The translations under genes were made by a program, and so were the position numbers. Of a stretch of 64,000 nt of DNA, positions 41,388-64,000 are shown piece by piece. This DNA is from an uncultured Gammaproteobacteria bacterium (GTDB lineage: Bacteria > Patescibacteriota > Microgenomatia > UBA10105 > UBA927). The stretch is from contig CAZXHY010000002.1 of assembly GCA_964639945.1 (NCBI GenBank), forward strand, positions 183 through 64,182. The letters are read 5' to 3'. Position 1 is the stretch's first letter. Every line of letters begins with the position of its first letter. A model generated the notes under the pieces. That model saw nothing but the letters and a program-made list of their open reading frames with translations. It did no database searches and had not been told where the DNA came from.

Positions 41388-42924
41388 TTACCACATCATT
41401 TCGTGCCACCGTGGAGACCACTTTACCATGTGTGTTCCAATAGGCAATAGCCCCCTCAAAAAAATTCTGAGAGTTAGGTATGATGATGAAATCAGCACCT
41501 TCTGTTTCTGACTGCACAAATGCAAGTGTATTATCTGGAAAATACGCACTCGGAAAATTAAGCCACGCCACATATACAGTGGCATCAGTGCCTCTTGCTA
41601 CATTGTTTACTTTGGTCACCAACTCCCCAACGGAGAATCCCCAATAATCAAAATCAAACGTCTCAGATACTTTCTTGCTCTCTCCTGCAAATATATTGAA
41701 ATACATAGATTCATATGGGTGCATTCGCATAGCCACATACCCTAGTGCTACCACAAGAACTACCAGACATAGTGTTTTGACTGTCTGTATTGACACCCAG
41801 CGTGCACCAGTCTTTACCAACCATTCAACCCCAAACATAGCAAGCAGCGCAAGTGCTGGCAACACTTCCATCACGTGCCTTGCGCCGTTATATATGATCA
41901 TGTGAGGAACCATATACCGACCAAATACGACGCCAATCCAAATAAAAACTATAATTCGCTTGCGCGCAACACCAGCCTGCATTCCTAAAGCGCTAGCTAT
42001 AATACCCACAAATATAAACAAGAGAACGACTGGTGGAGTCTGTAATGCGATTACACTCGGTGCATACCACCATGGCACATCCACGCCAGCAATATAGAGA
42101 ATGCCATCAAACAACACGGGTAATCCACGCCCTACTTCACCGACGTACTGTACAATCATTCGAATGTTCCGAACTGGATCTGTCACAATCCATGGCCAAA
42201 AAACACACAACACCACCATCCCCACTATTCCATAGTGGGTAAAATATCCTATTTGTCTTACCGAAAGCCGATTCTTCTTTTGTACGATAAACCAAATACC
42301 TAAAATTATAGGAACAAACACTGCATTGAATTTGGTCGCCATTGCAAGTCCCCACACCACACCCGCAACTAAATATAAATGAAGTGTATTTGCTCGTATT
42401 GCACGCATACCTAACCATACAGAAAGCGTAAATAACGCGGCTTGTGGCACGTCTTTTATGTTTACCTGACTGTGCCCCAAAAATATGGGTGATAGTGCCA
42501 AAATAAGCGCGGCAATACCTCCCAAAAACACTGAACCAGTAAGCTCTAGTCCCATCGCGTATGTGGCATACACCGCTAGCGCCGAAAACAACACTACAAC
42601 CATGTGATGAGCAGAAACAGGATCAGTGAGATGAAGCCACTCAGACCAAACCAGAGATGAAAAGGAGGCAAGTGTGATAGCAAGCGGCGGATATCGTTCC
42701 CAATGTGTATCAGCCCGAAATGGCAACGCTTGAGGTATACGGAGGCTGGTTGGATTACGAAGTGGACCTAGTGACTGTGTCCAAAGGATATTCAAATATA
42801 TGCGCCCCACAAAATAATTTTCTGGTTCATCCCACGTTATAATGCCACGTGACATGGTAAACAAACCAAACAAAAACACAACAAAAAATATAATAATCCC
42901 TACTCGTCTTTGATGCATGCGCAA
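41359..42924 (-). CDS. Polytopic membrane glycosyltransferase, GT-C fold; paralog of 36868..38493
   Basis: First-loop acidic motif ITWDEPENYF. Carries the shared DYWG C-terminal motif. Confidence 0.65.
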   Translation of the reverse strand: MRMHQRRVGIIIFFVVFLFGLFTMSRGIITWDEPENYFVGRIYLNILWTQSLGPLRNPTSLRIPQALPFRADTHWERYPPLAITLASFSSLVWSEWLHLTDPVSAHHMVVVLFSALAVYATYAMGLELTGSVFLGGIAALILALSPIFLGHSQVNIKDVPQAALFTLSVWLGMRAIRANTLHLYLVAGVVWGLAMATKFNAVFVPIILGIWFIVQKKNRLSVRQIGYFTHYGIVGMVVLCVFWPWIVTDPVRNIRMIVQYVGEVGRGLPVLFDGILYIAGVDVPWWYAPSVIALQTPPVVLLFIFVGIIASALGMQAGVARKRIIVFIWIGVVFGRYMVPHMIIYNGARHVMEVLPALALLAMFGVEWLVKTGARWVSIQTVKTLCLVVLVVALGYVAMRMHPYESMYFNIFAGESKKVSETFDFDYWGFSVGELVTKVNNVARGTDATVYVAWLNFPSAYFPDNTLAFVQSETEGADFIIIPNSQNFFEGAIAYWNTHGKVVSTVARNDVVIGYLFATKK

Positions 42925-42940
42925 AAAAATGTTGTGGATC

Positions 42941-44617
42941 TTACAATATGCTATATATGGTCACATATGCATTGTGATATATAGACCGCAAAAATGGGTA
43001 TATGTGCGAAAGATCTGCGACCGCCCCATCTTCCCTCTCTTGAGGACCAAAAAATACATACGATGCTCCTGTCCCACGAACAAATTCACGTGCCACATTT
43101 GGTGGCATTTCTCCTGAAAAAAATTGTGATACATCAACTCGTTTTTGCTCGGCATTTACTGTATTGTCATGCCCCACAAATACACGATTACCGCTATACA
43201 CTGGGATATAATTTCCTGCGGTAGTCTCAGAAAGAACTATTTCATTCCTACCTGCGTTATTTTGTATGTATGATATTGCTGCGATAAAGTCACGCAACGG
43301 ATACATCACATAACTCCCCGTAGGCACCAATGGCACAGAAGCTCTAATTTTGTGATCCACGAAATCCTTTTGCCACATATAGGAAGAAAACATGTGAAAT
43401 AATCCCAGTAAAATCAGGCTCATGGCGACAAACAACGATAAAAACTGACCTATCCCTCGCAAATAACGGGTCTTGATAGATAAGGCAAACATGCTAAAAA
43501 AGACATATGCGGCGAGTATTCCAAGGCCAACATGGGGCACCATTTCTGAAAATCGCAGTGGACTCTGCGATGGGATAAATCGAAAAACACCGAGGAGTAT
43601 CATCCATGCTCCAACCCAAGAAACAACGGGAATAAAATAACGATCCCGCCTCCACAACACGATCCCTGCCCCCAGAAGCCCCAACGGAAGCATTGGGCCC
43701 AATGCTTGGATATACTCTATGTAGTCAAATGGTAATGGATGCAAAATATCAAGCTCGGCCAATCGTTTCCATGGATAAAACGAGGTCATGAGAAAGAGAT
43801 ACACGAGCGAAGGTGCGCTCACGCATATAAATCCAAACACGGGAATAAACCACTCCTTCATCCCCTGCAACATGCTCTTTTTCTCAAACCAAGTCTCCAA
43901 AAACACCATCACAACCAATGTTGTATAGACAAAAATAAGCCCCGGAGGAAACACCATCCCAAGCACAAATCCCAAAATCCCCAAAAATATATTGTTTACT
44001 TTACGCTTCATTCCAACTGATGCCGCGAAAATCAACACGATACTCAACATAAGCGCTTGACCTGCCAGAAGATGAGGGATAAACGTAATCCTTTGCAAAC
44101 TATCCATGACAGACCACCACGCCATATACCCACCCAATCTTGGAGCATCGGCAACTGTCACAAATTTGGGCCAAGAAGAAGCGGTCACAATCAGCAAAAA
44201 ACCCAGAATCGCCCATGTGGTTCTATTTGCTACATGTGCAAAGCTTCGCCTACACCACGAAGCTATAGCAAAAAGCAGCGCAAAAGCGAGCACGATACGA
44301 GCCACATGGTAGACATCTGCTGGTCTGTAGTCTGGCACTCTCGCCCAAGCTCCAACTTTTCCAAGAAGCAAATAAAATTCATGGATAAACGATCCTGCAT
44401 GCGTCTCAGTCGTATAAACCTCACGAACAGTCCATTTACCCTCCAGCCCCATGCGAATTCGCGAAAGATAAAAATTATAATCAGTTGGGAAATTGTGCAC
44501 GAGTTCAAATTGTCGATTAGACTGCAAATCTCCCGCACGAGACAACTCATACATAGAAGGTGCAAGAGAAAATAGAACAAATCCCAAAATAATATATGTC
44601 AGTATCCACTTTTTCAT
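42941..44617 (-). CDS. Polytopic integral membrane protein (558 aa), GT-C-like
   Basis: Has more than 12 TM helices and a C-terminal soluble domain. No diagnostic motif beyond topology. Confidence 0.5.
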   Translation of the reverse strand: MKKWILTYIILGFVLFSLAPSMYELSRAGDLQSNRQFELVHNFPTDYNFYLSRIRMGLEGKWTVREVYTTETHAGSFIHEFYLLLGKVGAWARVPDYRPADVYHVARIVLAFALLFAIASWCRRSFAHVANRTTWAILGFLLIVTASSWPKFVTVADAPRLGGYMAWWSVMDSLQRITFIPHLLAGQALMLSIVLIFAASVGMKRKVNNIFLGILGFVLGMVFPPGLIFVYTTLVVMVFLETWFEKKSMLQGMKEWFIPVFGFICVSAPSLVYLFLMTSFYPWKRLAELDILHPLPFDYIEYIQALGPMLPLGLLGAGIVLWRRDRYFIPVVSWVGAWMILLGVFRFIPSQSPLRFSEMVPHVGLGILAAYVFFSMFALSIKTRYLRGIGQFLSLFVAMSLILLGLFHMFSSYMWQKDFVDHKIRASVPLVPTGSYVMYPLRDFIAAISYIQNNAGRNEIVLSETTAGNYIPVYSGNRVFVGHDNTVNAEQKRVDVSQFFSGEMPPNVAREFVRGTGASYVFFGPQEREDGAVADLSHIYPFLRSIYHNAYVTIYSIL

Positions 44618-44670: not shown

Positions 44671-45231
44671 GTGCCTATGGCTACACCACTCTCCCTGACG
44701 GATATAGACGAAAAAACAAGTGCAAAAATCTATGTTCAAGACTACAAGTCTAAACCTACTATCGATGGCGTTACGATAATAACGCTCAAAAATATGTCTG
44801 GTGAAGACAGTGATTTTTCTGAACTTCTTCGCATCAATCCACAGGGTGAAGTAGAACAATTCCCAGGATTTCATATAGCACAAATAAACCGCAGCACCCA
44901 AATTCCGGGGTCTGTCAAAGCATGGCATATACATTTTGCACAGGATGAATTATGGTATGTCGCCGATGAGTCTCGACTCATGACGGGACTTTGGGATGTA
45001 CGAAAAAATTCTCCTACGTATGGCGCAACCATGCGTATACCCATGGGCGGAAGTACGCATCGCATGGTGTATATTCCTCGAGGCGTAGCTCACGGAGCAG
45101 TAAATTTTTCCACAAATATTGCCACCATAACGTACTTTATGAACGGTCAATTCAACATAAACGACCCTGACGAACGCAGAATCCCATGGGACACTCTCGG
45201 GAAAGAATTTTGGCAACCCCAACGCGACTAA
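44671..45231 (+). CDS. Cupin-fold NDP-sugar epimerase/isomerase (RmlC/FdtA-like). The annotated GTG start may really be the ATG at 44677
   Basis: 186 aa. KAWHIHFAQDELWYV and the beta-rich composition fit RmlC-like cupins. Immediately precedes a DegT aminotransferase. Confidence 0.55.
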   Translation: MPMATPLSLTDIDEKTSAKIYVQDYKSKPTIDGVTIITLKNMSGEDSDFSELLRINPQGEVEQFPGFHIAQINRSTQIPGSVKAWHIHFAQDELWYVADESRLMTGLWDVRKNSPTYGATMRIPMGGSTHRMVYIPRGVAHGAVNFSTNIATITYFMNGQFNINDPDERRIPWDTLGKEFWQPQRD

Positions 45232-45262
45232 GACATATTCCCTGCCTACACAAGTTTTTTCT

Positions 45263-46381
45263 ATGAGTCGGCCTACCTTTAACGCTCTGGCTATCACGAG
45301 CCCAAAACTCCAAAAGCAATATATCCAAGCATTTACCCATGTATTAAAACGTGGAATATTCCTCCATGGTCCCCAAAACAAAAAACTTACCAAACTACTA
45401 TCCCAAAAAATCGGCACACACGTTACTCTTGTGGCTTCTGGTCATGATGCGCTTCTTTTATCGATACAGTCGCTTCATCTAAAAAATACCGATGAAATCA
45501 TAGTTCCAGCAAACGCGTACCCCACTGCGTTTGCTGCAGCGCTTAGTGGGACCAAACTAGTACTGGCAGATGTAGATCAAAACGGACAATTATCCGTGCA
45601 TACTGTCGCTGCTGCCATAACCAAAAATACAAAAGCTGTCATCATGGTGCATTTATATGGCGCGACAGGAGACATAGATGCCGTGCGCCACTTCTGCAAG
45701 AAAAAACACATCACACTTATAGAAGATTGTGCGCAAGCATTTGGTACCACATACAAACATAAAAACGTCGGTACATTTGGAGCACTGGGATGTTTTTCGT
45801 TTTATCCGACCAAAAACATAGGAAGTTTTGGTGATGGAGGCGCTATTTGCTCACCATACGCATCTAAAATTACAGAACTGCGCATACGATCGTTTTATGG
45901 AGAAAAAACTCGATATAAAAGCACGTTTATAGCAGGTCACAGCAATTTACCCGAACTGCAGGCTGCAGGAGTACAAGTTGCACTAAAAAACTCCCAAAAA
46001 AACTTTGCAAACAGAAAACAAATTGCCATATGGTACAAAAATTCACTCAAACACCTCTTGGAATTTTTACAACCACTAGCATCAGATCCGTCGAGCGATG
46101 CTGTCCCACACCTTTTTGTAATTCTCGCCAAACACCGTCGGCAACTGCAACAATTCCTCACAAAACGAGGTATTCCTACGCATGTCCACTACCCTACCCC
46201 CATCCACCGTGTTCGTGCATTTTCATATCTTGGGTATACATCTGGATCATTCCCTATTGCAGAGTCGTTAGCCAAAAAAATTCTCAGTTTGCCATTTCAT
46301 CCATCTATGACAAAATCTGATGTTCAGAGCGTGGCACGCGCCATAACGAACTTCTATACTCAGTCTGATACCATGAGGTAA
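45263..46381 (+). CDS. DegT/DnrJ/EryC1/StrS (ArnB-type) sugar aminotransferase
   Basis: FSFYPTKNIGSFGDGGAICS; EDCAQAFGT. Confidence 0.85.
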   Translation: MSRPTFNALAITSPKLQKQYIQAFTHVLKRGIFLHGPQNKKLTKLLSQKIGTHVTLVASGHDALLLSIQSLHLKNTDEIIVPANAYPTAFAAALSGTKLVLADVDQNGQLSVHTVAAAITKNTKAVIMVHLYGATGDIDAVRHFCKKKHITLIEDCAQAFGTTYKHKNVGTFGALGCFSFYPTKNIGSFGDGGAICSPYASKITELRIRSFYGEKTRYKSTFIAGHSNLPELQAAGVQVALKNSQKNFANRKQIAIWYKNSLKHLLEFLQPLASDPSSDAVPHLFVILAKHRRQLQQFLTKRGIPTHVHYPTPIHRVRAFSYLGYTSGSFPIAESLAKKILSLPFHPSMTKSDVQSVARAITNFYTQSDTMR

Positions 46382-46385
46382 TCGC

Positions 46386-47075
46386 ATGAAAAAACTGCCG
46401 GAACTTTCTTTATTTTTCCCTTGCCTCAATGACGCGCAATCATTAGCACGCCTTATCTCAAGGGCAGATCAAATTGCAAAACAGGTTGCCATACGGTATG
46501 AAATATTGGTCATAAATGATGGCTCGACGGACAACACAAGTCGCGTACTTGCACGACTCCAAAAACGATACATCCACCTGCACACAATCACTCACCCCAA
46601 AAATATGGGGTACGGTGCAGCATTACAATCAGGATTTTCTAACGCTAGATATGACTGGGTTTTTTATACAGACGGAGACGGACAATATGACCCTTCTGAG
46701 CTAAAGAAACTAGTGGAACGTGTTACGCCATCTGTTGATGTGGTAAATGGGTACAAAATACACCGCGCAGATCATTGGACTCGCACAGTGCTAGGCGTGC
46801 TTTATAATCGTGTAGCTCATGTCATAACTCGGCTACCCATTCGTGATATAGATTGTGATTTTCGCCTTATTCGGCGTTTGGCACTACGCGATATCACCTT
46901 GCACAACGACTCTGGAGCCATCTGTATAGAACTTATTTCCAAACTACACACACATGGCGCAAAATTTGCAGAGGTCCCAGTTCATCATTATCCACGCCGT
47001 TTTGGTCGATCTGAATTTTTTCGCATCTCGCATCTTTCTACTATGCTACACTCACTAACGCGCCGTAGATTCTGA
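46386..47075 (+). CDS. GT2-family polyprenyl-phosphate sugar transferase (ArnC/DPM1-like)
   Basis: LSLFFPCLNDAQSL...VINDGSTDNTSRV...TDGDGQYDP. There is a GAGGT Shine-Dalgarno-like motif 7 nt upstream. Confidence 0.8.
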   Translation: MKKLPELSLFFPCLNDAQSLARLISRADQIAKQVAIRYEILVINDGSTDNTSRVLARLQKRYIHLHTITHPKNMGYGAALQSGFSNARYDWVFYTDGDGQYDPSELKKLVERVTPSVDVVNGYKIHRADHWTRTVLGVLYNRVAHVITRLPIRDIDCDFRLIRRLALRDITLHNDSGAICIELISKLHTHGAKFAEVPVHHYPRRFGRSEFFRISHLSTMLHSLTRRRF

Positions 47076-47100
47076 CACGCATATTCTTTATACTTTACCT

Positions 47101-47778
47101 ATGGAATCTGACAGTCAATCTGATATCAAAACACTACTTCCAGCCGTTGGTATCAGTATTTTTTTGATACTCATCATAGGGCTTGCTGTAACACGTGCCA
47201 AATCACAAAAAGGCACAATTGTCCTTCCGGGGGGTGTTACCTATTTAGGCCCCACGCCTACTCCAACACCTGCAAATGGTGCAAAATTTGACTCAGTCAT
47301 GGGTGGCCAAATCCCCATACCAGACAGTGCCCAATGGGTAGAACAAAAAGGGAAACTATTCCCATACAGTTTCGCATATCCCAACACCATCTCGCTCGGA
47401 GTATTCCCGAATGATCCATATGACTCCGTAACGGTTTTTTATAATGGCACTGATGCGCAAGGAAATCTTTTCTTTCGCATAGAAGATCTCACGCAATTAC
47501 AAAAAGTGTCGTTCATTACAAAGCCAAAAATCGAATATGTCAACCAATGGTGGAAAGACTATTCATGGAGTGGAGTCTCTAGTGTGACACCGTTTACCAA
47601 TAGCAAAGGGCTCAAAGGATACCGTGCAAAATACATAGACAGCAAAGGTCAAACTCCATATGACCATGTATTTTTTGAAGTACCAAATAATAAAAATCTG
47701 CTCATATGGATCAGTGGTAAATTATTTTCTCAAACCGTTTTCGACAAACTCGTTGACTCAGTGAGCTGGAGCAAATAA
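47101..47778 (+). CDS. Hypothetical membrane-anchored extracytoplasmic protein (225 aa)
   Basis: One TM segment (LLPAVGISIFLILIIGLAV), a TPTPTP linker and a beta-rich C-terminus. Confidence 0.55.
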   Translation: MESDSQSDIKTLLPAVGISIFLILIIGLAVTRAKSQKGTIVLPGGVTYLGPTPTPTPANGAKFDSVMGGQIPIPDSAQWVEQKGKLFPYSFAYPNTISLGVFPNDPYDSVTVFYNGTDAQGNLFFRIEDLTQLQKVSFITKPKIEYVNQWWKDYSWSGVSSVTPFTNSKGLKGYRAKYIDSKGQTPYDHVFFEVPNNKNLLIWISGKLFSQTVFDKLVDSVSWSK

Positions 47779-47785
47779 ACCGTCT

Positions 47786-49408
47786 ATGCCATTTATCGCA
47801 TGGATCATTACAATGGTTTTCACTGCAGAAAACCTTTACCCCTATTTCGTAGGTCTCTGGCAAACACCAAGCGGTGCAGTATTTTTGGGAACCGTGCATC
47901 ACCCAAGTGATTACTTTTACTATGTATCACAATTTGCCCAAGGCGCTACGAGATGGATTACTACACTTGATCTGTATACAGCAGAATCTATAGGACCAAC
48001 GTTTGTGGGCTGGAGCAATGTGTTTCTGGGGCACATTCTAGCACTTTTTGGCACAAATCCATTCCAAAGCTACCACATCTCAATAGCACTATTATGCATC
48101 GCGTTATTTTTTGCGGCATTTCACCTTTCCAAAGAAGTGCTTGGTAGCAACAGACTAGCGGTAATCAGCCTATTCCTATTCGGCATATATCATGCGTTCC
48201 CTATACTGCGCGATGGACTACCCTCATATGGTGACTATTTCAACAACTTCGCCGTCCCTCGTGTCCGATTTGGAGCTGTTCCACATCAGCTACTTCTTGC
48301 CGTAGCGTCTATCTCTCTATCTTTTATCATGCTTCGGTGGCACAGGCAGAAAAATCGCTCGATACGACTCCTTATGGGGATCGTCATATCCAGCATAATT
48401 CTTGCAAGCTTACAACCCGCTCTATGGATAGTAATCATAGGAATTTTTGGTGTTACATCAACTATGTATGCATTGTCAAAAAAGGATAAAAGCGAAATAT
48501 TGAACACATTTATTTTCCCTATATTTATCGCGGGATTAGCTGGTATTTTACCTATTCTTTATCTCTCAAATCTCTTTGACTCACTTCCGTTTATACAACT
48601 CAGAACTTGGGAGGCCTCTCAGCAAACACGTTTCACTATCGGACATTTTATAAGCGCGACGGGACCAATATTTATTGGCGCCATAGCATCAATACCGTGG
48701 TTTCTGGTACAACGCTCGTACACTCAAGTATATGTGGTGTTATTTACGATGATTTCGTATGTATTATTTCTCTCCCCTATCCCAGCTATGCTCAATCTTT
48801 CTCACGTACGATTTATGTCTACACTGGCGATTTTATATCTATGCATCATCACAACCGTTGGGATAGAAAAATTATCGGAAATATTGGCATACTACCTACA
48901 TAAAGCATTCCCTCAAACGCGCCGTTTTCAGGCTCGTCATGTGACGCTATTTACGGTAATTTTACTTACGATATACCTTATCCCAAATCACCTACTCACG
49001 ATAAAATTAGCTAGTGAATTTAGTCCAACCAACGCGTATCACTACCTCGCACGAAACGAATATGAATTTCTTCTCAAAACCTCTAACACAAGCGATCCTG
49101 CCGATATATTTCTTGTCATTTGGCCATACAACTCGGTATTCCCAGCTATCACCGGTAGAAAAAGTTTTCATGGACACTCACTTCTGACCATAAACACAAT
49201 TCAAAAAGATGCGCAGGCAATACAATTTTTTGATAACAAAATGAACGACGAACAAGCACGGGCTTTCTTGCGGGACAATCGTATAACACAAGTCATAGCC
49301 TACTCATGGACCACTCTACCAAAAGGCCTTATGATACATACGGCGACAGGTGGCTCACTTTCGCTTTTTGCCGTAAATCAAGAGCACTTGAAACCCTATA
49401 GTAAATAG
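47786..49408 (+). CDS. Polytopic membrane protein (540 aa), GT-C-like; paralog of 35279..36871
   Basis: See 35279..36871. More than 12 TM helices. Confidence 0.6.
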   Translation: MPFIAWIITMVFTAENLYPYFVGLWQTPSGAVFLGTVHHPSDYFYYVSQFAQGATRWITTLDLYTAESIGPTFVGWSNVFLGHILALFGTNPFQSYHISIALLCIALFFAAFHLSKEVLGSNRLAVISLFLFGIYHAFPILRDGLPSYGDYFNNFAVPRVRFGAVPHQLLLAVASISLSFIMLRWHRQKNRSIRLLMGIVISSIILASLQPALWIVIIGIFGVTSTMYALSKKDKSEILNTFIFPIFIAGLAGILPILYLSNLFDSLPFIQLRTWEASQQTRFTIGHFISATGPIFIGAIASIPWFLVQRSYTQVYVVLFTMISYVLFLSPIPAMLNLSHVRFMSTLAILYLCIITTVGIEKLSEILAYYLHKAFPQTRRFQARHVTLFTVILLTIYLIPNHLLTIKLASEFSPTNAYHYLARNEYEFLLKTSNTSDPADIFLVIWPYNSVFPAITGRKSFHGHSLLTINTIQKDAQAIQFFDNKMNDEQARAFLRDNRITQVIAYSWTTLPKGLMIHTATGGSLSLFAVNQEHLKPYSK

Positions 49409-49428
49409 TATATACTCATTTTATACGT

Positions 49429-50205
49429 ATGGCATCCGAACAAAGGCCACAAATTCCAAATCCATACAAAGAAGTCAATTACAATGTTCGTATTGGCGCG
49501 CTCACCACTTCGGAAAAAATGGATCTTCTGGCCAATCTCTTTCTCAAACTTGAACATAAGCATCTTCGCGAGCCTCACCGAGTACCACAGGCCAAACCTG
49601 AAGCGAAAATCATGTTTTTGATCGGTGGACCAAAAAACGATGTAACCGAGGCTCGAGACTTTGACGGCAACTTGATTCACACCCGACATTTAAATCACCC
49701 ACGACCAATGTTTGCAGAAATTCCTGAAGCGCTCAACTCTATCTCTCACTGGTTTGATATGTTGGCAATAAGCAAAGAACCAGAAGGTAAACTCCCCTCA
49801 CCCGTCGCACCCATTAGCGAAGTGTCGGATGTTGTCTACAATATATCTCATTTACTCACACTTGACCCTAATTTTTATGACAACTACACGGTGTATCTCG
49901 ATCGCATCGCAGACTCATTAGGATTTAGCCTCGACCAACTCCTAACCGTCGCACTCTACAAATACAACTTTAGACTGGGACAGGGCAAGTCACAAAAAAA
50001 TATCATTGTCGAAAACTCTATGATAGAAAACCTCATGAGACAAACTCAACCAGATGGAAAACCATTTGTCCCAACCCCAAATGAGACACAATTTCAACAG
50101 ACATTTCACACGCTGTCTGAGGTGCAATCCATGTTAAAGACTAGGCTAGATCAACTCAGGCAAGCTGATGAATGGCGAAAAAACGCCCTCAAATCCACAG
50201 ACTAA
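49429..50205 (+). CDS. Hypothetical soluble protein (258 aa)
   Basis: Long ORF with no TM segment and no recognisable motifs. Confidence 0.5.
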   Translation: MASEQRPQIPNPYKEVNYNVRIGALTTSEKMDLLANLFLKLEHKHLREPHRVPQAKPEAKIMFLIGGPKNDVTEARDFDGNLIHTRHLNHPRPMFAEIPEALNSISHWFDMLAISKEPEGKLPSPVAPISEVSDVVYNISHLLTLDPNFYDNYTVYLDRIADSLGFSLDQLLTVALYKYNFRLGQGKSQKNIIVENSMIENLMRQTQPDGKPFVPTPNETQFQQTFHTLSEVQSMLKTRLDQLRQADEWRKNALKSTD

Positions 50206-50253
50206 CTCGAAGATCCCCTCGCATCAAAATCAAAATTTCCGTATGATACACGC

Positions 50254-52119
50254 ATGCGGAAAAATTCACTGCTTTACTGGTGTTTTGGCATAGCGATAGT
50301 ACTTCGCTTACTGCTTATTCTAAATCCGGGATTTGAGGCAGATATATCATTTTGGAAATCATGGGGACTGGCTACATACGACAAAGGGATAGTCGAGGGA
50401 ATGAAGGTGACAAACAACAATTACCCCACCCCATTTGCTTACATTTTAGGCTTCATGGTCACGGTATATAGCAAATTTGCCGATCCTCATAATTTTAATG
50501 AGTTTTGGAACAACACCAACTTACTATTTCTCACCATCAGCAAACTCGTGCCTATACTTGCTGACTTCGGTATAGCAACTTTACTACTTTTTATAGGAAA
50601 AAATACGAAAAAATTAGGCTTTCCTGACATTTCTTTCAAAATTTTTACGCTAACATTCTATGAGTTGGCTGCGATAGTGTATCTACTCTCGCCTCTCGCA
50701 CTGATCGATGGCGCATGGTGGGGACAAGTGGATGCGCTAGGGGTATGTATTTTCCTTACTGCGCTAATCCTCGCTCTCAAGCGTCAACCATTTTGGGCAG
50801 GAGCCATATTCATGCTGGCCATGATGACGAAGCTACAAAACATGATTTATGGACCAGTGTTTTTTCTATTTATATGGCAAAGTCTAGGCTTTTCTGGACT
50901 TGTACGTGCCATTGGCGGTGCATTAGTCAGTTTTTTGGGATTAAATATAGAGTTTCTCTTGGCACGAAATGCAGACCGTGTATTTGCTAGCCTCACCGAA
51001 AATTATGACTATTTCCCATGGATGAGTCTAAACGCATACAACCTCTGGTGGATCACAACTGCCGGACGCGGCATGATAACTTCCGACAAATTGTCGATAA
51101 TTGGCATAGTCAATGCGAAAACAGTCGGACTACTTGTCTTCTCGTCTCTTTATCTCTTTGCGGCACTTCGACAGTTCATCGTAGGCCTCCAAAACCCCCC
51201 TTCGCAAAACACTTCGGCCGGACGAGTCAGTACGATAAACCTTCGCAACCTCATCGAGTCACTCATCATCGTAAACGCTGCTTTCTTTCTCTTCCAAACA
51301 CAATCTCACGATCGCTATGCATTCCCATTATCGGTATTTCTGCTTCTATGGGCACCATTTTATATAGCAAAACACAATAATCACATCCAACACAGGCTGA
51401 GAATTTTCTCTTGGATGTATGCGATATTTACCTTTTTTTATTTCTATAACTTACATACGGCACTCGTAGCCAACTACCCAAACAATGGTATACCTATCCT
51501 TTCTGGACTCGCTCAGCCCATGTTTACCATCCCAACGTCATTTGTGCTATTGGGGTTATTTGGAGTATTCGTCTTGCATCTCGTACGCGACTCGCATATA
51601 TCAAAATATGTAGCTGCACTTTCCTGTATATTTGTCATATCGGCTCTGAGTATGCTCAATCGTCCACTGATTAGCCGTCAACCCGTAAGCCTTACCAAGA
51701 TAGCACCATTTGTGTATGAGCAAGGATACGGACGCCGACAAGTAAACAAATCAGTAAATAGCTACCTCGGTGGGCCAAACAAATGGAACAGGTTATCTGT
51801 GCAATACGTATTTTATCCCACTGGAATAGGTACTCATGCCAATTCACGCGACGTCTATGACATAAATAAAAAATTTACAAAATTTACCACAGACTTTGGC
51901 ATAGACACGGAAGCAGGCGCCAAAGCATCGGCTATATTTGAAATTTATGGTGACGACAAACTCCTCTTTCGTTCAGAAAAAATGGGCAGATATACTATGC
52001 CCGCTCACGCTGAGGTAACAGTAAAAGGAGTGCGACATCTGAAATTAGTTACAACCGATGCGGGTGACGGTATTTTCGACGACCACACTGATTGGCTAAA
52101 TCCAACACTGTGGCCATAA
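50254..52119 (+). CDS. Polytopic GT-C-like membrane protein with a C-terminal NPCBM-like putative carbohydrate-binding domain
   Basis: N-terminus: about 12 TM helices with the acidic motif PGFEADISFW. C-terminus: GIDTEAGAKASAIFEIYGDDKLLFRS...VTTDAGDGIFDDHTDWLNPTL, matching the D-H-x-D-W ending of NPCBM/NEW2 domains. Confidence 0.6.
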   Translation: MRKNSLLYWCFGIAIVLRLLLILNPGFEADISFWKSWGLATYDKGIVEGMKVTNNNYPTPFAYILGFMVTVYSKFADPHNFNEFWNNTNLLFLTISKLVPILADFGIATLLLFIGKNTKKLGFPDISFKIFTLTFYELAAIVYLLSPLALIDGAWWGQVDALGVCIFLTALILALKRQPFWAGAIFMLAMMTKLQNMIYGPVFFLFIWQSLGFSGLVRAIGGALVSFLGLNIEFLLARNADRVFASLTENYDYFPWMSLNAYNLWWITTAGRGMITSDKLSIIGIVNAKTVGLLVFSSLYLFAALRQFIVGLQNPPSQNTSAGRVSTINLRNLIESLIIVNAAFFLFQTQSHDRYAFPLSVFLLLWAPFYIAKHNNHIQHRLRIFSWMYAIFTFFYFYNLHTALVANYPNNGIPILSGLAQPMFTIPTSFVLLGLFGVFVLHLVRDSHISKYVAALSCIFVISALSMLNRPLISRQPVSLTKIAPFVYEQGYGRRQVNKSVNSYLGGPNKWNRLSVQYVFYPTGIGTHANSRDVYDINKKFTKFTTDFGIDTEAGAKASAIFEIYGDDKLLFRSEKMGRYTMPAHAEVTVKGVRHLKLVTTDAGDGIFDDHTDWLNPTLWP

Positions 52120-54440
52120 TGCATATGAAACATATAGAAAAATATCTTGGTATTGCGCTCCTTATATTTGCGTTAGGGTTTAACTTCTGGACGTATCGAT
52201 CCGAGCCTTCTGCGAGGTTAGATCCCAACGACAACACCTTCCAATTTGCCCTCGTCGACCGAACCAACCAAATTTGGGACTATGCAAACACGCATTGCAA
52301 AAGCATTTTTCCAACAAACCTCTTCTGCAAAATTTCTCTGCTAACCGATCATTGGGTACCCAACTGGGCAGAGGGATATAACCTTCCCTATTACTACTCT
52401 CATATTCCACAAATTGCCATCGTCGCCTCATACAGACTTTTCCAAACTATTTTTCAAACACAACTATTACTATTTAGTTTCTATCACCTCAGCATATTTA
52501 CGCTGCTGTGCATATTTCCATTATCGCTATTTCTAGCATTACGAATTATTGGATTATCTTGGATAGCAAGTGGCATAGGGGCCACAATCGCCTCTCATCT
52601 TTCTACCGATGGTTTGTATGGACTAGATCCTGCGTCATTTTTATGGCGAGGATTCGGCCTCTCCAGCCAGCTTTTTGCCATGATATGGTTTCCACTGGCT
52701 ATCGCTACAGCTTGGAGATGCTTAAAAACACCTTCTGGTGATGTAAATGCCAAAGCTGTACTCGTGCCAATTTTGTTTCTAGCCGCAACAACAGCGGGTC
52801 ATTTGGGTATAGGCATCATCGCATTTATAACGATTGGCATGCTTTATCTGAGTCCACTACTGTTATCTTTCCTCACCCACTCCATCGACAAGACTATTCT
52901 AGATACCCTAAAAACCAACATGGTAAAACTGATCATAATGTTTACCGGAGTCGGATTACTTCTGGGGTACTGGATTGTTCCCATACTCAAGGACAGCAAC
53001 TATCACAACATATCTGTATGGGATCCAATATGGAAATTCGATTCATATGGATACCGCGAGGTGTTAAAAAACCTCTTTAATGGTGACATATTTGATTTTG
53101 GGCGCTTCCCAACGCTCTCCATACTCGTAGTAGTTGGAATATTTGTCGCCCTCCATAGTCCGCTATCAGGATTCTATCCATTCGCCTTTCTTTTGATCTT
53201 CTGGGTATTACTCTACTTTGGACGAACTACATGGGGTGGACTCATAGATATCATCCCAGGCATGAAAGAATTTCATATCTCTCGTTTCATCGTAGGAGTA
53301 CATATGAGTGGATTATTCCTCATTCCCCTTGTAGCAGAGTGGATAATCACAAAAACGCACAAAACAACCCGAGTCGCTGTCGGAATACTATGTAGCGTGA
53401 TCATCGTATTGGCGGTATACCCACAAACCCTCCGATACGCCAAACATAATGATTTTCTCATCGACCGAGCCAACACCAACTACAAACCCATAGCGTCAGA
53501 CAGTGACAATTTGATCCAGACACTCAAAAATAAACTCGTCACAAACTCTGGGCGTGTCTATTTTGGACGGGGTGGAAACTGGGGCAAGAACTTCCGAGTC
53601 GCAGAAACCCCCTACTATCTCTACGCATCGACTTTTGGCATCCCTACTGTACTTTGGCTACCTCAAACATGGTCACCAAACTCTGATACAGAACAATTTT
53701 TTAGCGATAACCGTGAGAGCGACTACACCCTCTACAACGTGCGATATGTCGTAACACCACCAGATCTAGGCAAAGCCGAAATCCAACCCTTCTGGAAGCC
53801 TCTGGCGGCAGGACATACATGGAAATTATATGAGGTGGAGACAGATGGATATATCACTAGTGGCATTCGTCCGGTAATCGTCAGCGTTGACAAAGAAACA
53901 TATATAAATCTAGTCCATCTTTGGATAACCTCTGACGCTCCTAAAATAGGATTATACCCTGAGCTTACTTTTGACAAAAACTATCCTAAAAAAACTGGTT
54001 TTCCTAATTTTCGAATGATCGACAACGTAACCTATACAACTCCTTCTGGAGGAACACAAAATCTTTTTGCAGATCAACCAATCTACGGAGCTTCACAAAA
54101 GTGCAACAAGATAGATAATGTAATCATACTTTCTCAAAAATCTACATCTGACATGATATTTGAGGCAAAAGTAAAGGCGGAACGAGATTGTCCAGATTCG
54201 CTTGTTGTATTACGTCAGACGTATCACCCATCATGGCATGCGACTATTGATGGAAAACCTGCAAAAACAATAAGTGTATTCCCTTTTTACACAGCTGTTG
54301 TTGTAGAAACTGCAGGAAATCACACCATTCAATTCGCCTATAAACCTTCAGTGATCAAACAGACACTGCTCATTCTCGCTTTTATATCTATAGGACTTCT
54401 TTTTGGATACCTCTTTTATAAAAAAGACTCGTCACAATAG
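52092..54440 (+). CDS. YfhO-family polytopic membrane protein (782 aa; start possibly at nt 52119, overlapping the upstream stop as TAATG)
   Basis: The C-terminal motif YHPSWHATIDGKPAKTISVF...FAYKP, followed by a final TM helix, matches the YfhO C-terminus. The same motif occurs in 38506..40623. Confidence 0.65.
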   Translation: MAKSNTVAIMHMKHIEKYLGIALLIFALGFNFWTYRSEPSARLDPNDNTFQFALVDRTNQIWDYANTHCKSIFPTNLFCKISLLTDHWVPNWAEGYNLPYYYSHIPQIAIVASYRLFQTIFQTQLLLFSFYHLSIFTLLCIFPLSLFLALRIIGLSWIASGIGATIASHLSTDGLYGLDPASFLWRGFGLSSQLFAMIWFPLAIATAWRCLKTPSGDVNAKAVLVPILFLAATTAGHLGIGIIAFITIGMLYLSPLLLSFLTHSIDKTILDTLKTNMVKLIIMFTGVGLLLGYWIVPILKDSNYHNISVWDPIWKFDSYGYREVLKNLFNGDIFDFGRFPTLSILVVVGIFVALHSPLSGFYPFAFLLIFWVLLYFGRTTWGGLIDIIPGMKEFHISRFIVGVHMSGLFLIPLVAEWIITKTHKTTRVAVGILCSVIIVLAVYPQTLRYAKHNDFLIDRANTNYKPIASDSDNLIQTLKNKLVTNSGRVYFGRGGNWGKNFRVAETPYYLYASTFGIPTVLWLPQTWSPNSDTEQFFSDNRESDYTLYNVRYVVTPPDLGKAEIQPFWKPLAAGHTWKLYEVETDGYITSGIRPVIVSVDKETYINLVHLWITSDAPKIGLYPELTFDKNYPKKTGFPNFRMIDNVTYTTPSGGTQNLFADQPIYGASQKCNKIDNVIILSQKSTSDMIFEAKVKAERDCPDSLVVLRQTYHPSWHATIDGKPAKTISVFPFYTAVVVETAGNHTIQFAYKPSVIKQTLLILAFISIGLLFGYLFYKKDSSQ

Positions 54441-54447
54441 CCCAAAA

Positions 54448-57400
54448 CTAATGAATCAAGACGAAATACTTCTCTTGATCTACGTATTTAAAAATACCTT
54501 CCCATGTCTCGTAATCAAGTGGCTGAGATGATGTTTGAAACGCATTTAACCCGTTTAGGTTCGCCATCCAATCATTTATTGGGTCTTTTATACCAATTTC
54601 AGAATCGATCCCTTGTGTAATCAATTGATCTTCTAATTGATCTTTCAAACTCACAGACCACAACATCTCAGGTGGAATGAGAATTTGCACCGCTTGACCA
54701 GTCTCGTTAGCACCCACAAGCCCCATATACATAAGCTTATTTGTTCCACCATATTGATTTGACCTCATAAAGTTTTTTGCCATAGACTCAGTGAGATTTG
54801 TATTTCCTTTATAGGAATACCCCACAAACGACGTGGTGTAATCGAACGGCCACAAGATACGCATAGCGTTCTCGTATTCACTTATTCCCTGATTTGGCGT
54901 TGTCATAAACCGCACCTCACCATTTTCTTCAACTAGCCACGGTGTTACCACTTGGCTATGTATCTGAGTTAGGAAATCAGGTTGCGCAACTCCATTTAGT
55001 TTGTTTAATTGGGCATCAGGAATATTGGTAGCGAGATATTGTATATACACAGGGTCATTTAATGATTTCCCCATTCGCGCGTAGGCAGCTAGTACTGCAT
55101 CCCAATCAGAAAAATCAACAATTGCGCCCTGTTCGATAGGATCTATAATTATCGCAGGAAGAATCTCTCCATCTTTCTCCAAATGAAGAAATGCAATTAA
55201 CTCTGGATCAGACGTAAAATACAGCAATCGTCCGTCCTCATCTTTACGAATTTCCCACTCAACATCACCTACTACAAACGAATAATGCATATTGTAATCC
55301 CATTTTCCTTGTAGCTGTTTACATGCTTCATCTCCTTGCATCAAGGCAGTGAGCGCTTCTTTGGCCATTTGTGGATTCACATCACCGCGATCTATATCAT
55401 GAAATGCAGCATATATTACTGGTTTACATGCCTCAGAGACATATTCATTCATAAGCTCTTTACCTAACACCGCAATCCATCGAGTATTCCAGTCACCCAA
55501 TACTAATTGAGATATCGCCACGTACAACAATGCCCTATCGACCCGAATACATTTTGGAAATTTACACCCTTCAGGACCCGCCCCCTTCTTCGACATCACA
55601 AACCGAACACCCGTGCGACGCGTTATTTCCTTTTGTATTCCTTCTCGAAAACTCACGTTATCTCGAATCTCCCTAGCAAGCGCATTGCGCGACATAAAAA
55701 TAGGTGCGCATGTAGGATCCCCACCCATTGCGTAGACCTTTTTAACAAATGGATTGAAAGAAAAACATCCATCATTTTTTATACTTTGAATTACAATCTG
55801 TATACCTGTGTGATTAGCCTCATTTTTTGTAGCTGAGGAAATAACTGGACGATTTCTTTGTAAGAGAATCTCAAATATATTCTCATCCGACGCATATCGA
55901 CTCGTCCACAAGTCTACCACCTCGTGGTATACGCTTTTCCAGATAAAAGAACTTAAGGTTTGTGCAAATTGACAGATACCACTCACACGATTTTGACCAC
56001 TAAGACTTTGGGCGTAAACTTTGGTAACAAAACCAACACTTCCTCCATCACACACTGCGCCTGTAACCCTATCTATAACCGATTTCGCCACTTCCTCTAA
56101 TTTATTTTCGGGTATTTCCTGCTCTCCTAGAGACTGTAGCAAGCTGTGTTCTTCTACATCCTGTGGTTTAAAAAACTCTGGATGACTCACGCGAATATCA
56201 GAAAGCTTACCCACAACGTGGACTCCCAATTGATCATTAGGAGTCAGATCCACAACGGTTGCATCAGAAAATCCATGCACACTCATGTAATACATAAGCA
56301 TCTGTATCCCCTGAGTTGTACCTCCGACGGTCCATATATTGTTTGTTCCATGAATAATTTTAGCGCTCGTCATAGGCTCAACGAGCCCAGATTTTTGCAG
56401 AAGCACGTTATGCGCATTGGTTTCTTTAGTCCAGAGCAACCTGCCGTCGTTCGTAATAATTCCAATAAATTGTTGACCTGAAACCCCTGCATACCGAACC
56501 TCAGTCACAGCAGCGTTCATGTAGGATAACTTTTGTTTTAGATCTAACGTCGTGTATGAAATTTCAGGTGTGGGTAAACCAAAACTATAGACCCCAGCTT
56601 TCAAATCGTCATTAAGGGTTTTACGATCAATAACAAACCGTGTTCCTTCATTTCTAACAAACACTAAACGACTTGCTGATACGGCACCTACTAACAAATC
56701 CTCGTCACCAATATCTAAATGTTGGATAAAAGTATCACCTACCAAATAGACAAAATCGTCCGAAGTTCCTGCTAGTTCGCCGAGCGTTGTGTTGGTTATC
56801 TTTTGGTTTGATCCTATACCCAATTCCAGCCGGACAATGGTTCCTGCTTCAAATTCCAAACGTATGAGCCGAGTAGCCAACTCTTGGGTATTCGTAAACG
56901 ATTCATCAGGAATGCTAACAGTGAGGCCTTCTCGAGAATTAAACAGATAAATATTCCCACGTATTTCATGCTGAGGTTGAGTAGATGTAAATTTTATTGG
57001 GTAGGAGAGGAATACCTGTGGAATTTGGGCGTACGGATTGACAATATCGTCTAACTTCCCCGCTGCTACATCAGCAAGTGTCAAATTTTCTTGTCGTTCA
57101 CGATCTCGGAAAGAGAATCTCCAATTAGGATAAGCTCCCTCTTGGAGAAGCACGCGAACAGCATAATCTGCCAGCGTGCGTCGCATTTTTGGTGTCATCC
57201 GCCCGTTATCCACTCTATCAATACCAAGCTCGCCCCTATCCACTATAACGGCTATATAATCACTCTCATTACCTCCTATAGAATTCACGATCGTTTGATG
57301 AGCCGTATTGAATGTCCTACCCAAAATAACGCCTTGGGTAGAATCATGCATATTGATTACTGCTCGAAATGTAGAAATAGGATCCTGCAGGAAATCTCGA

Positions 57401-60400
57401 GACGCAGCTCCCAGAATCACCCGCAGCAACTCACCCTGTGTCGTTCCATCTGCATTGATAAGATGATAGAGTGTCACAAATGCTTCCGCATTATCAGCAA
57501 AAATTCTATTTGACAGAGCTCTGGAGATTTCAGGTCTTTGTGCAACAAGATCAGTAATTTTTGGGTGATTTAACAAAGCAAATACATTTTCTGTTAAGTC
57601 TTCATGCTGAAGCATGAAGGATATAAGCGCCTGTTTATTATCATCATTCAACCACTCTGGTTTGTCTGTTTTTGCAATGTAGCTTTTTAAAATACTAACA
57701 ACTCTACCTCTGTTGATAAGTCCGGATTTAATAACTTGTGCAATTTGAGTACGGGCCATAACTGGTATATCAGAGTGGAAGATAACGGAAACAAGATCAG
57801 TTCCGAGATATGAGCCCAAAACCTCTTCAATAAGCGAAGGTTTTTGATGGTGTGTTCTGATAACCCTCTCTGCTACGGTTTGTCTTTTTTCCGATTCGAC
57901 CGTTTCGTCAAGTAAAAATGCGCGCACAGAACGAACAGGTTTAGACGAAATGGAAAAACTTTTAAAGTCGCTCTGGCTCATATCCTGCCAAAGGACAATA
58001 GCTGCACCCATACGGTTATCAGCATTATTGGTCGCATCAGACACAAAGGAACCTAAAATGTCATAAATGATAAGATAAAATTTTGGAATATATTTTCGGG
58101 ATAACACATTAATCATTTCATGCTCCAACTCCTCACTTTTTATACGTATGAAAATTTCATTAAGGAGCTCTCGCATGCCCTGCTGGCTAATATTATGAAC
58201 CCCAACAGATTCAAAATATTTCATCGTTTCAACAGGAAACTGACGAATATGTTGCTTCATTAGTTCAATAACTCGTACATCTGGATTCTTTATATTTGAC
58301 CAAAGTGATTGCACCAATGAACCATTTTCTACGTTAGTGATCCTAAGGGACGCAATTTTTTGAATAAATTGAAACGAAGCATCGTTTGGATTTTTGTAAA
58401 AATCTAAAAGCAAAATAAGCGCGTTGGTTCTAACTTCGACATCCACCTGATCATTAAACACAAGATCTGTATAGAGCTCTACAACATCATTATTAAGATG
58501 CTTTTCCCAAGAATTCATAAGTCGTAGTCGTATCGTTTCATTTACTTTTTTATTTTCTAAAATTTGTCGAGCGATAGTAACGGCTTGAGGATCACTCGGA
58601 TCCATAGACCAAACTTGTTCATAAAAAGCTGTCGTAGGACCCAAGGTTTCAAAAAAATCATCAGGTATAGTCTCTTCTCCTGCCAGTGGTTTTACTTCTG
58701 ATCTATTTTTAAGCAATAAGGGCCAAAGTGCTATCGGTTGATCTTTCAAAAAAGCATAAAATACACGGTCAATTTCTGGCCATTGTGCACTGTAGGCATC
58801 AAAGTATGAACGTGCATATTGCTTTGCATCGGGAAGATTATTTATTGCAAGGACAAAAGGTACAAACTCCGGCTGGAAATTTATATAATTCTCAAAATCT
58901 AATCGCAACACTGTGTCAGTAAAACGGCTCAGTGTGTGTATTGGCGGCAAAAAATCTGGCCTCAGAGACAGGAGGAATAGCTCTTGCTGATCGTCAGCTT
59001 GGTTCAGTATCATATTCCAAAACGCCTTTTCTCCTTCTGGAACGAGACCTGATGTAACAAACGCAGGGTCATGAAGCACTTCGTAATATATTGATTTTTT
59101 CCATTCATCCGGATGTTGCGCGTAATACACAAAAGTCGGATTCTTCTCATTAAACATTGGGAAAAATAACGTCGCAAAAAACGCAGAAGTGAAGTTCTGA
59201 CCGTTGTACGTGGGGTGAGCATTTATGTCTTTAAAAACTTGCGTTACGTTTAAAATAGTTTGTATACGAACCCCACCTACTAACGCGTCGCTTACGAATT
59301 GATTCAACCCTTTATCCTCTGACGATGCTGCCTTTAATAACTCATGAATCCTGTACAAATCAAATTTTGTTATACGTTCACCACCTCTAACTCGTTGAAG
59401 TATTTGTTCCCAAGGAAGAAGCTTGAAATGTTCTTCTTCTATACTGAATTGAAAATGCTCTAAGTTGACTTCCTCTTGCCTATACAAAAATCCCTCCTCA
59501 TGCGATTCGTCTGTGAGAAGCATATACACTTCTGCCTCAACTGGATAAATTTTGTAGAATTCCCAAAGCTTTTGTATATCCCCAACAGGAGAAGATGTGT
59601 CACGAATAAACCCTTGTCGTGCGGCCACTTTTTTAGCAAAAGGCCCCACTAATGCCATAAATGCATCAAGATCTTTTTTTAATTCGGGATTCTGGATAAA
59701 AATTTCATTATAAAATGAAGCGGTTATGCTAACTTGCGGTCGACCCTCACGAATATTTCTAAAAAATTGCTCAATCACATATTCTCGTTCGATCTGACTT
59801 CCGTTATATAATGCGCCGTAGTCAAATGCTTGATCGTAGACTTTATCTGGTACTCCATATCCTGGGGTTCCATCAGGTCGATCATAAAATTCTGGAGTTA
59901 TACTGAATGTCTTTGGAGCTAATGCGAAAACTTTCGCATTCTTCTCTAAAGGTTTCGTCGAACCATAGACAACATAGTGCTGGGCTTTATCTAGCAACCC
60001 TAAATACTCATAAAAATTATTGTATGCTCGCAACGATCCCCCAGTTATATATACCTCACTCAAAACCGAAATTGATTCACTATTTTCTAAATCAGCTAAA
60101 ACCTCGGGATAATAATATTGCATCAATGCCTTTCGGAGCGCCCCATCTACCACAGGTTCGGATGGTGCCAGAAGTCGCTGTAAATTCAACAGATCTTGAT
60201 TTGTAGGATCAGTTTCCAGCTTAAGCGCCACCTGATCTCTTGTTGTGTCTATCCATATTTCTGGTATCCCTTTGTATGCAATGGTGTTTGGTCCGATAAT
60301 ACCTTTTGGACCCTTTGTTGGCATAAGAACAAATTTTGGCATATTTGCCTCAGAAATACCAAGAATTTTACCAATGATTATTATCACTGCTTTCTGACGC

Positions 60401-63924: not shown

Positions 63925-64000
63925 TCCTGTTTTTAAACCCTTTCCTAATTGCGTTAACCATCGCCATAGCGCTTCAAATGACCAACCACGAGATTTTAAT

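Follow-up and report, generated by a model that had tools for sequence, protein, structure and literature searches.

Carbohydrate recognition by membrane-embedded glycosyltransferases (GTs) of the GT-C fold has precedents among enzymes that work on long polysaccharide acceptors: EmbC has a lectin-like C-terminal domain and AftD has three carbohydrate-binding modules (CBMs); the role proposed for these modules on the outer face of the membrane is binding of the polysaccharide acceptor. GT-C enzymes of the PimE/ALG6 type are without the soluble domain that PglB, ArnT and PMT possess. PimE contains 12 transmembrane (TM) helices, of which TM6 is short, has both termini in the cytoplasm, and carries juxtamembrane helices in two loops, the first one and that joining TM7 to TM8; its catalytic base is D58, which tips the first juxtamembrane helix, while K195, W319 and H322 serve as ligands of the donor phosphate (PMC12041525). 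Some GT-C enzymes belong to three-component systems for extracytoplasmic glycosylation, composed of a GtrB-like GT2, a GtrA-like flippase and the GT-C enzyme itself, as for CsbB/YfhO in Firmicutes (PMC11127046). Modules of the NPCBM/NEW2 (CBM51) family have so far been characterized on secreted glycan-degrading enzymes and mucinases, and the characterized CBM51s bind galactose, blood-group A/B or N-acetylglucosamine (GlcNAc). Here we describe a gene, open reading frame (ORF) 50254-52119, whose product joins a GT-C-like membrane core to a C-terminal NPCBM/CBM51 domain. The gene lies in a 64,000-nucleotide stretch of contig CAZXHY010000002.1 (assembly GCA_964639945.1, positions 183 to 64,182; hereafter the window) from an uncultured, groundwater-type Patescibacteria bacterium.

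The C-terminal NPCBM/CBM51 domain

ORF 50254-52119 translates into a protein of 621 residues with the C-terminal end ...DAGDGIFDDHTDWLNPTLWP. Window coordinates of the features discussed below are:

50254-52119, forward strand: whole gene, predicted PimE/GT87-like GT-C membrane glycosyltransferase with C-terminal NPCBM/CBM51 domain, 621 residues
50260-51594, forward strand: GT87-like 12-helix GT-C core, residues 3-447 (hhalign, Foldseek, weak Pfam GT87 match)
50335-50343, forward strand: acidic motif E28-A29-D30 where the first juxtamembrane helix begins, with D30 as putative catalytic base (invariant in 58 sequences)
50830-50832, forward strand: K193 (MTKLQN), putative donor-phosphate ligand (invariant)
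51307-51309, forward strand: H352 (SHDRY), putative donor-phosphate ligand (invariant)
51595-51657, forward strand: extra TM helix 13, residues 448-468, absent from the GT87 paralogue and predicted to return the chain across the membrane (AlphaFold2 helix)
51709-52110, forward strand: NPCBM/NEW2 (CBM51) domain, residues 486-619 (Pfam, Protein Data Bank (PDB) sequence matches, Foldseek, hallmark residues)
52081-52095, forward strand: D-H-T-D-W motif of the NPCBM domain (invariant in the family)

The Pfam profile PF08305 (NPCBM/NEW2) matches residues 486-619 over profile positions 11-136 of 137, with a score of 110.9 bits (E 6.3e-32). The gathering cut-off of this family is 23.9 bits, so the match is far beyond chance. 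Searched by sequence, the PDB yielded CBM51 modules alone, namely those of Clostridium perfringens ZmpB (7js4), the GH95 CBM51 (2vmg/2vmh) and the GH110 enzyme (8pvs). Structure comparison gave the same picture. An AlphaFold2 model of the target protein, computed from 58 homologues, has a predicted local distance difference test score (pLDDT) of 87.4 and a predicted template-modeling score (pTM) of 0.88, and its C-terminal domain superimposes on 2vmh, 2vmg and 2vmi with Foldseek E-values of 3-5e-9 (2vmh, 3.4e-9) and TM-scores of 0.80-0.81 normalized on the target. Further Foldseek matches were to the CBM51 structures 7js4, 7jrl, 8pvs, 2vng and 2ygm.

The target family retains the complete CBM51 signature set: GxGxH, GxD, D..S, DxGDG and DHxDW. 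Among 58 family members, the residues G524, G526, H528, G549, D551, D567, S574, D602 and G604-D605-G606 are invariant, as is the stretch D610-H611-T612-D613-W614. Across 405 NPCBM domains of 137 unrelated proteins, the same hallmark positions are 59-100% conserved, and those of DHxDW hold D in 97%, H in 90%, D in 82% and W in 97% of the domains. In addition, the target family has invariant residues of its own, Q517, Y518, F520, T552 and H585, which are without counterpart in other NPCBMs.

The Pfam score, the fold match and the invariant motif confirm that the C-terminus is a true NPCBM/CBM51 domain. The initial annotation of this DNA had recognized the NPCBM/NEW2 pattern, including D-H-x-D-W, in the last ~80 residues (51874-52119), and the PF08305 search that it suggested returned the match described above. 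It placed the domain correctly and made it too small: the flagged region (residues 541-621) is the C-terminal ~60% of a domain of ~134 residues at 51709-52110.

The membrane core

Foldseek comparison of the whole target model retrieved GT-C proteins: EmbA/B (7bvc_B, E 1.9e-6), ALG6 (2.5e-5), GPI-MT-I (5.7e-5), PIG-U (8imx_U and 7w72_U, ~8e-4), PimE (6.9e-3, with a TM-score of 0.60 on the target) and ALG3, all of which share the GT-C fold. In the model, helices 28-51 and 59-73 are located between TM1 and TM2, and with these and the fold matches the target shows the conserved seven-helix module and the pair of juxtamembrane helices of the first outer loop by which GT-C_A (PglB, ArnT, ALG6, PimE) is recognized. 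The NCBIfam collection holds no model that matches the target protein, and five of 14 relatives match Pfam GT87 at E ≤ 1, the best at 3.9e-6.

A second gene of the window provides a reference for the topology of the core:

17347-18588, reverse strand: stand-alone GT87 paralogue, 413 residues, without NPCBM domain (Pfam GT87)

This paralogue matches Pfam GT87 with 30.5 bits (cut-off 25). Its AlphaFold2 model shows 12 TM and four juxtamembrane helices, with a TM6 of 14 residues, and matches ALG6 (Foldseek E 6.4e-4) and PimE (6.6e-4, TM-score 0.61). Alignment of the target core with the family of the paralogue is highly significant (hhalign 97.2%, E 4e-11, 366 columns) and runs from residue 3 to 447 of the target and from 8 to 409 of the 413 paralogue residues; a single-sequence comparison of the two gave a weak result (9.6%), and the relation became convincing only once the family alignment of the paralogue had been built. 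Paralogy of the core with the PMT_2-like, YfhO-like and other polytopic neighbors in the window was considered as well, and rejected at the sensitivity of hhalign (<7%).

Fold comparison and profile alignment thus support the assignment of the N-terminal 447 residues as a divergent PimE/GT87-like GT-C core. GT87 enzymes have 12 TM helices with both termini cytoplasmic; the target departs from this architecture in that helix 448-468 and a domain predicted to be outside are added. Since it also falls under the Pfam cut-off, we place its core in the GT-C superfamily as a homologue of GT87 but leave it outside that family.

Residues of a catalytic type are retained in the core. E28, D30, K193 and H352 are invariant among the 58 family sequences, and the alignment with the GT87 paralogue family pairs invariant residues of the two families: D30 with D34, K97 with K97, and D160 with D149. 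In the same alignment, K193 (MTKLQN) pairs with the invariant K182 (VKWQP), H352 (SHDRY) with H327 (VHENH), and N263/W266 with N251/W254; K193 may be likened to K195 and H352 to H321/H322 of PimE. The invariant E28 and D30 agree with the conserved acidic catalytic residue that GT-C_A enzymes have in the first extracytoplasmic loop. D30, K193 and H352 are thus of the same kind as the catalytic base and donor-phosphate ligands of PimE, at comparable positions in the chain, and we assign them the corresponding putative roles. The equivalence is indirect, because neither the profile of the target core nor that of the paralogue family finds PimE in the PDB; the latter profile gave no sequence match there at E ≤ 10.

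Topology and location of the NPCBM domain

Hydropathy counting alone left the number of helices unfixed, and we relied on homology and on two loop statistics, both computed over the 58 homologues, independent of each other and concordant. The GT87 paralogue ends four residues past the helix that aligns with target residues 422-446. In the target, the core is followed by a loop rich in Lys and Arg (445-451), helix 448-468, a linker of 17 residues and the NPCBM domain. A 12-helix core that ends in the cytoplasm and is followed by one more helix places the NPCBM domain outside.

The first statistic is the positive-inside bias. With the C-terminus outside, models have 0.21-0.23 K+R per residue in cytoplasmic loops versus 0.06-0.07 in outer loops, whereas with the C-terminus inside the bias is gone (0.108 versus 0.108). 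The second is loop conservation, where two kinds of loops alternate along the target family: conserved loops of fixed length (25-89, 153-160, 191-199, 231-287, 348-356, 408-421 and the linker) and variable, poorly conserved, K/R-rich segments (the N-terminus, 117-134, 176-179, 314-326, 373-383 and 445-451). As judged from these patterns and the model, the NPCBM domain is very probably extracytoplasmic, and we infer that it is situated on the active-site face of the membrane, next to the active-site loops. The view of the N-terminal part as a GT-C-like membrane protein, put forward in the initial annotation, thus holds with the Foldseek matches and the alignment to the GT87 family, and the cytoplasmic location that would have spoken against its proposal is contradicted by helix 13 and the positive-inside statistics.

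Conservation and distribution of the fusion

NCBI and ENA hold an identical protein for this gene. A protein search listed full-length clusters, more than 120 in number and with identities of 54-83%, every one with PF08305, which the databases name either “NPCBM/NEW2 domain-containing protein” (Woesebacteria, Gottesmanbacteria, Patescibacteria) or “Gpi18-like mannosyltransferase”. In a survey of contigs from one genome per species, 79 loci encode the fusion protein, nearly all of them from Gottesmanbacteria/Microgenomates. Every one of the 79 complete copies matches the hidden Markov models (HMMs) of both the core and the NPCBM domain; five further matches, to the core alone, are truncated by contig ends. 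Misassembly or an artefactual gene fusion is rejected on this basis. The NPCBM domain is as conserved as the core (mean identity 66% vs 63%), and this, together with the strict co-occurrence, indicates selection on the fusion.

Many contigs that carry the gene (loci L008, L011, L013, L015 and many others, from binchicken third-party (TPA) assemblies) are titled “uncultured Gammaproteobacteria bacterium”. They encode the protein at 50-65% identity, like the Gottesmanbacteria contigs, and because the gene is shared in this way the Gammaproteobacteria titles look like placeholders or mislabels.

A search with the NPCBM domain alone of 1.84 billion cluster representatives gave 4,421 matches. Among the best 150 of these, only 13 clusters are polytopic, all from the family of the target, and the remainder are soluble, often multi-repeat proteins. 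The architecture is thus rare among NPCBM proteins and at the same time fixed and widespread in one lineage of Patescibacteria. The initial annotation had called the fusion, and the coupling of glycan binding to glycan transfer that it implies, unusual. This is borne out against the best 150 NPCBM cluster representatives; it does not extend to the lineage in which the fusion is fixed, nor to the principle, for which the CBMs on the GT-C enzymes EmbC and AftD are precedents. Our full-text literature searches found no paper that describes an NPCBM-GT-C architecture; the fusion is present in databases but uncharacterized, and undescribed in the literature searched.

Gene neighborhood

The target gene belongs to a tightly packed series of genes on the forward strand (44671-54440), which is met by a convergent ORF:

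44671-45231, forward strand: RmlC-like dTDP-sugar isomerase/epimerase
45263-46381, forward strand: DegT sugar aminotransferase
46386-47075, forward strand: small GT2 resembling polyprenyl-phosphate sugar synthases
47101-47778, forward strand: single-pass protein of 225 residues
47786-49408, forward strand: polytopic PMT_2-related GT-C paralogue, 540 residues
49429-50205, forward strand: soluble protein of 258 residues, function unknown
52119-54440, forward strand: YfhO-like GT-C gene downstream of the target, 773 residues (sequence, PF09586 homologues, hhalign)
54448-64000, reverse strand: convergent giant ORF, still open where the window ends, >3183 residues (without Pfam match)

The stop codon of the target gene overlaps the ATG of the YfhO-like gene in the sequence TAATG (window 52117-52121), which suggests translational coupling of the two GT-C enzymes. 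About one third of the listed homologues of the 773-residue protein carry PF09586 (YfhO), and the protein aligns with the YfhO protein encoded elsewhere in the window (hhalign 96.6%). Synteny was counted in aggregate across all loci: the YfhO-like gene directly follows the target gene in 75 of 83 loci, and the GT2 is co-located with it in 34 of 83. The nearest NCBIfam models of the GT2 are ArnC, PgfS, AglJ, PpgS and dolichyl-phosphate (Dol-P)-hexose transferases. Scans for promoters and terminators gave sites no commoner than expected by chance.

The 225-residue protein starts with a membrane anchor, which a PTPTPTP linker joins to an outer domain, and is without family match. In 58 of 83 loci it is conserved a short way upstream, and it could be one more component of the system.

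The giant ORF has a single hydrophobic segment, at the TTG listed as its start. In 30 of the 52 loci that have enough flank, the same position is occupied by a convergent ORF of 1000 residues or more, and a product of 13,555 residues is called at locus L003. These ORFs share little sequence, with BLAST matches in only five loci. The product is possibly a surface protein and, speculatively, a target of glycosylation.

Proposed function

We consider it probable that the target is an extracytoplasmic, polyprenyl-phosphate-sugar-dependent GT-C glycosyltransferase in which the CBM51 domain binds the glycan acceptor. In this proposal, the RmlC-like isomerase/epimerase and the DegT aminotransferase would supply an amino/deoxy nucleotide sugar, which the small GT2 would load onto polyprenyl phosphate; the operon suggests a donor of this kind rather than mannose. 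In the active site, D30, which tips the first juxtamembrane helix, would serve as catalytic base, with K193 and H352 holding the phosphate of the lipid-linked donor. Helix 13 would lead the chain back out of the cell and place CBM51 on the outer face, where it could bind the acceptor: (i) a growing envelope polysaccharide or lipoglycan, or (ii) a glycan on a surface glycoprotein. Keeping the acceptor near the catalytic cavity might confer acceptor specificity and/or processivity, as has been proposed for the CBMs of the mycobacterial enzymes EmbC and AftD. Since sugar-supply genes, GT2, and PMT_2-like and YfhO-like GT-C genes share one operon with the target, the enzyme would represent one step of an outer-face assembly line, and since PimE/ALG6-type enzymes are normally without a soluble domain, helix 13 and CBM51 look like a minimal add-on for acceptor recognition.

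Several observations weigh against this proposal. Two of the family-specific residues of the NPCBM domain replace residues found in other NPCBMs, Y518 a Gly and T552 an Asp, and such substitutions could alter or abolish canonical ligand binding; moreover, some NPCBM domains work intracellularly, in immune systems. The target scores 20.1 bits against Pfam GT87 (PF09594), under the cut-off of 25, and the profile of its core (first 478 residues) gave no sequence match in the PDB at E ≤ 10. The AlphaFold2 model shows a single confident helix of 37 residues at 194-230 (nucleotides 50833-50943), and because this helix is continuous a naive count yields 12 helices and not 13. At the aligned positions, the model of the GT87 paralogue has a short TM6 and TM7, and the paralogue family carries an insertion of six residues at the expected turn; the continuous helix is either a modeling artefact or a real local difference. 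Finally, the GT2 is far under the cut-offs of its nearest NCBIfam models and is without TM segments, and no gene for a GtrA-type flippase was found in the window. Near the target gene there is no ORF of 80-260 residues with at least three hydrophobic segments, and the lone candidate elsewhere (13812-14228) is without Pfam match.

The proposal has to be weighed against four other explanations. The β-sandwich could have been recruited, to a PimE/ALG6-type enzyme that otherwise lacks a soluble domain, mainly as a structural cap that closes the acceptor cavity or docks the YfhO-like partner and has no lectin activity of its own, which would agree with the fixed packing on the core suggested by the pTM of the two-domain model, with the family-specific invariants Q517, Y518, F520, T552 and H585, with a conservation as high as that of the core, and with translational coupling to a partner GT-C. 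A mere scaffold would, however, have no need to retain every hallmark NPCBM residue, and all of these are invariant in the family; we regard a purely structural role as unlikely. The polytopic part could instead be non-catalytic, like PIG-U of the glycosylphosphatidylinositol (GPI) transamidase, and together with the NPCBM domain present a lipid-linked glycan to, for example, the YfhO-like neighbor. The Foldseek matches to PIG-U and the partner GT-C gene that almost always adjoins point in this direction, but the top fold matches are to catalytic GT-Cs, and the invariant residues E28/D30, K193 and H352 align with invariants of the GT87 family, which makes loss of catalysis improbable.

The remaining two explanations concern where, and on what, the NPCBM domain acts. 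It could be cytoplasmic, at the end of a 12-helix protein with its C-terminus inside, and bind or sense an intracellular ligand as in actinobacterial immune proteins: the AlphaFold2 secondary structure lists 12 long hydrophobic helices, intracellular NPCBM domains exist, and the linker past the last helix contains ~2.4 K+R. Such an orientation abolishes the positive-inside bias, would put the loops homologous to the periplasmic PL2, TM9-10 and PL3 loops of PimE into the cytoplasm, and ignores that the GT87 core ends at residue 447 and is followed by one further helix, so that we hold it to be quite improbable. Highly improbable is a membrane-anchored lectin with which an episymbiotic Patescibacterium binds glycans on the surface of its host cell. 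Cultivated Patescibacteria are episymbionts (10.1101/2024.11.25.624915), and the galactose, blood-group and GlcNAc epitopes bound by CBM51s would suit this role; yet a single domain of 134 residues, tied by a 17-residue linker to a 13-helix enzyme core, would come to lie at the surface of the membrane and under the wall, catalytic-type residues are retained in the core, and the gene is located in an operon for glycan biosynthesis.

Returning to the glycosyltransferase with an acceptor-binding CBM51, a wider scheme can be put forward tentatively. Gottesmanbacteria-type Patescibacteria, with genomes of ~1 Mb, might build a complex extramembrane envelope coat of glycans or glycoproteins by means of a mycobacterium-like battery of lipid-donor GT-Cs. 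The target family might then represent an unrecognized class of GT-Cs, in which CBM51 serves as a “reader” for the choice of acceptor glycan, which might be carried by the neighboring giant protein, as the specificity-determining step of the pathway.

Other features of the window

The target gene is part of an exceptionally dense glycan island (15759-54440) with at least 13 genes for GT-C-type membrane glycosyltransferases, the target included. The island also contains ~7 small GT2s, three DegT aminotransferases, methyltransferases and a hexapeptide acyltransferase. Its further GT-C-type genes include:

15759-17354, 18597-20279, 36868-38493 and, on the reverse strand, 41359-42924: PMT_2 GT-C genes
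20304-21761, reverse strand: DUF2079 GT-C-type gene
38506-40623, reverse strand: YfhO GT-C gene
33736-35349 (reverse strand), 35279-36871, 42941-44617 (reverse strand) and 47786-49408: PMT_2-related GT-C genes

Three of the PMT_2-related genes, 42941-44617 (reverse strand), 47786-49408 (forward strand) and 35279-36871 (forward strand), encode proteins of 558, 540 and 530 residues, which are mutual paralogues (hhalign 100%). They are without Pfam match and only remotely related to PMT_2 (hhalign 90-96%), and so form an unmodeled GT-C subfamily.

Two methyltransferase ORFs on the reverse strand (23649-24380 and 25389-26120) both have 243 residues and near-identical Pfam match coordinates, and enclose an ORF of 354 residues without Pfam match; the pair may be a local tandem duplication. 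GC skew is negative in all 2-kb bins of the window (1-64000), at -0.08 to -0.24, irrespective of gene orientation, as would fit a strong bias between the replication strands that does not switch within the 64 kb. The window contains no tRNA genes.

Comparison with known systems

If CBM51 indeed holds the acceptor, the target would be the first case found of this lectin family at work on a biosynthetic membrane enzyme, and would offer a compact, PimE-sized model for the recognition of polysaccharide acceptors by GT-C enzymes, for which the very large Emb and AftD proteins are at present the only objects of study. The isolated NPCBM domain is small and soluble, so its ligand is directly determinable and would reveal a component of the envelope. 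More generally, the finding points to extensive, uncharacterized extracytoplasmic glycan assembly in uncultured Patescibacteria, the envelope chemistry of which is essentially unknown.

The target shares its fold, as judged by Foldseek, with PimE (GT87, Mycobacterium; PDB 9dm5/9dm7) and with the ALG6/GPI-MT-I group. Its family resembles PimE in the acidic residue that tips the first juxtamembrane helix and in the invariant Lys and His. The target itself also resembles it in that the seven-helix module is followed by a long outer loop with some disorder (pLDDT is low at 251-257 in the target, and 246-250 is disordered in PimE). Unlike PimE, which has 12 helices and is without soluble domain, the target has an additional C-terminal TM helix and the CBM51 domain.

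Compared to three-component systems, the target operon combines GT-Cs, one of them YfhO-like, with a small GT2 whose likeness to polyprenyl-phosphate sugar synthases stays under the cut-offs. It differs in that no GtrA-like flippase was found in the window, that several GT-Cs are present per operon, and that the GT2 is without membrane segments. With the CBM51s of secreted glycoside hydrolases and mucinases (GH95/GH98 and ZmpB of C. perfringens; GH110), the C-terminal domain shares Pfam family, fold and hallmark residues; those modules are located on soluble, secreted, degradative enzymes, whereas that of the target is located on a polytopic enzyme with a predicted biosynthetic function.

In overall design, the target resembles EmbA/B/C and AftD, in which a GT-C membrane core is likewise joined to a lectin-like β-sandwich module on the outer face, and whose hosts likewise have genomes rich in GT-C enzymes that build glycans outside the membrane. 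The target differs from these proteins in three respects: (i) its core is compact and PimE-like, as opposed to GT53/GT-C cores with large periplasmic domains; (ii) it has a single module, of the CBM51/NPCBM family, as opposed to two or three modules of another family; and (iii) it comes from Patescibacteria and not from Actinomycetota. The principle of a GT-C enzyme equipped with a CBM is thus already known, and what the present locus adds to it is the combination of CBM51 with a transferase, a core of compact size, and a reduced genome in which GT-C genes form a dense island.

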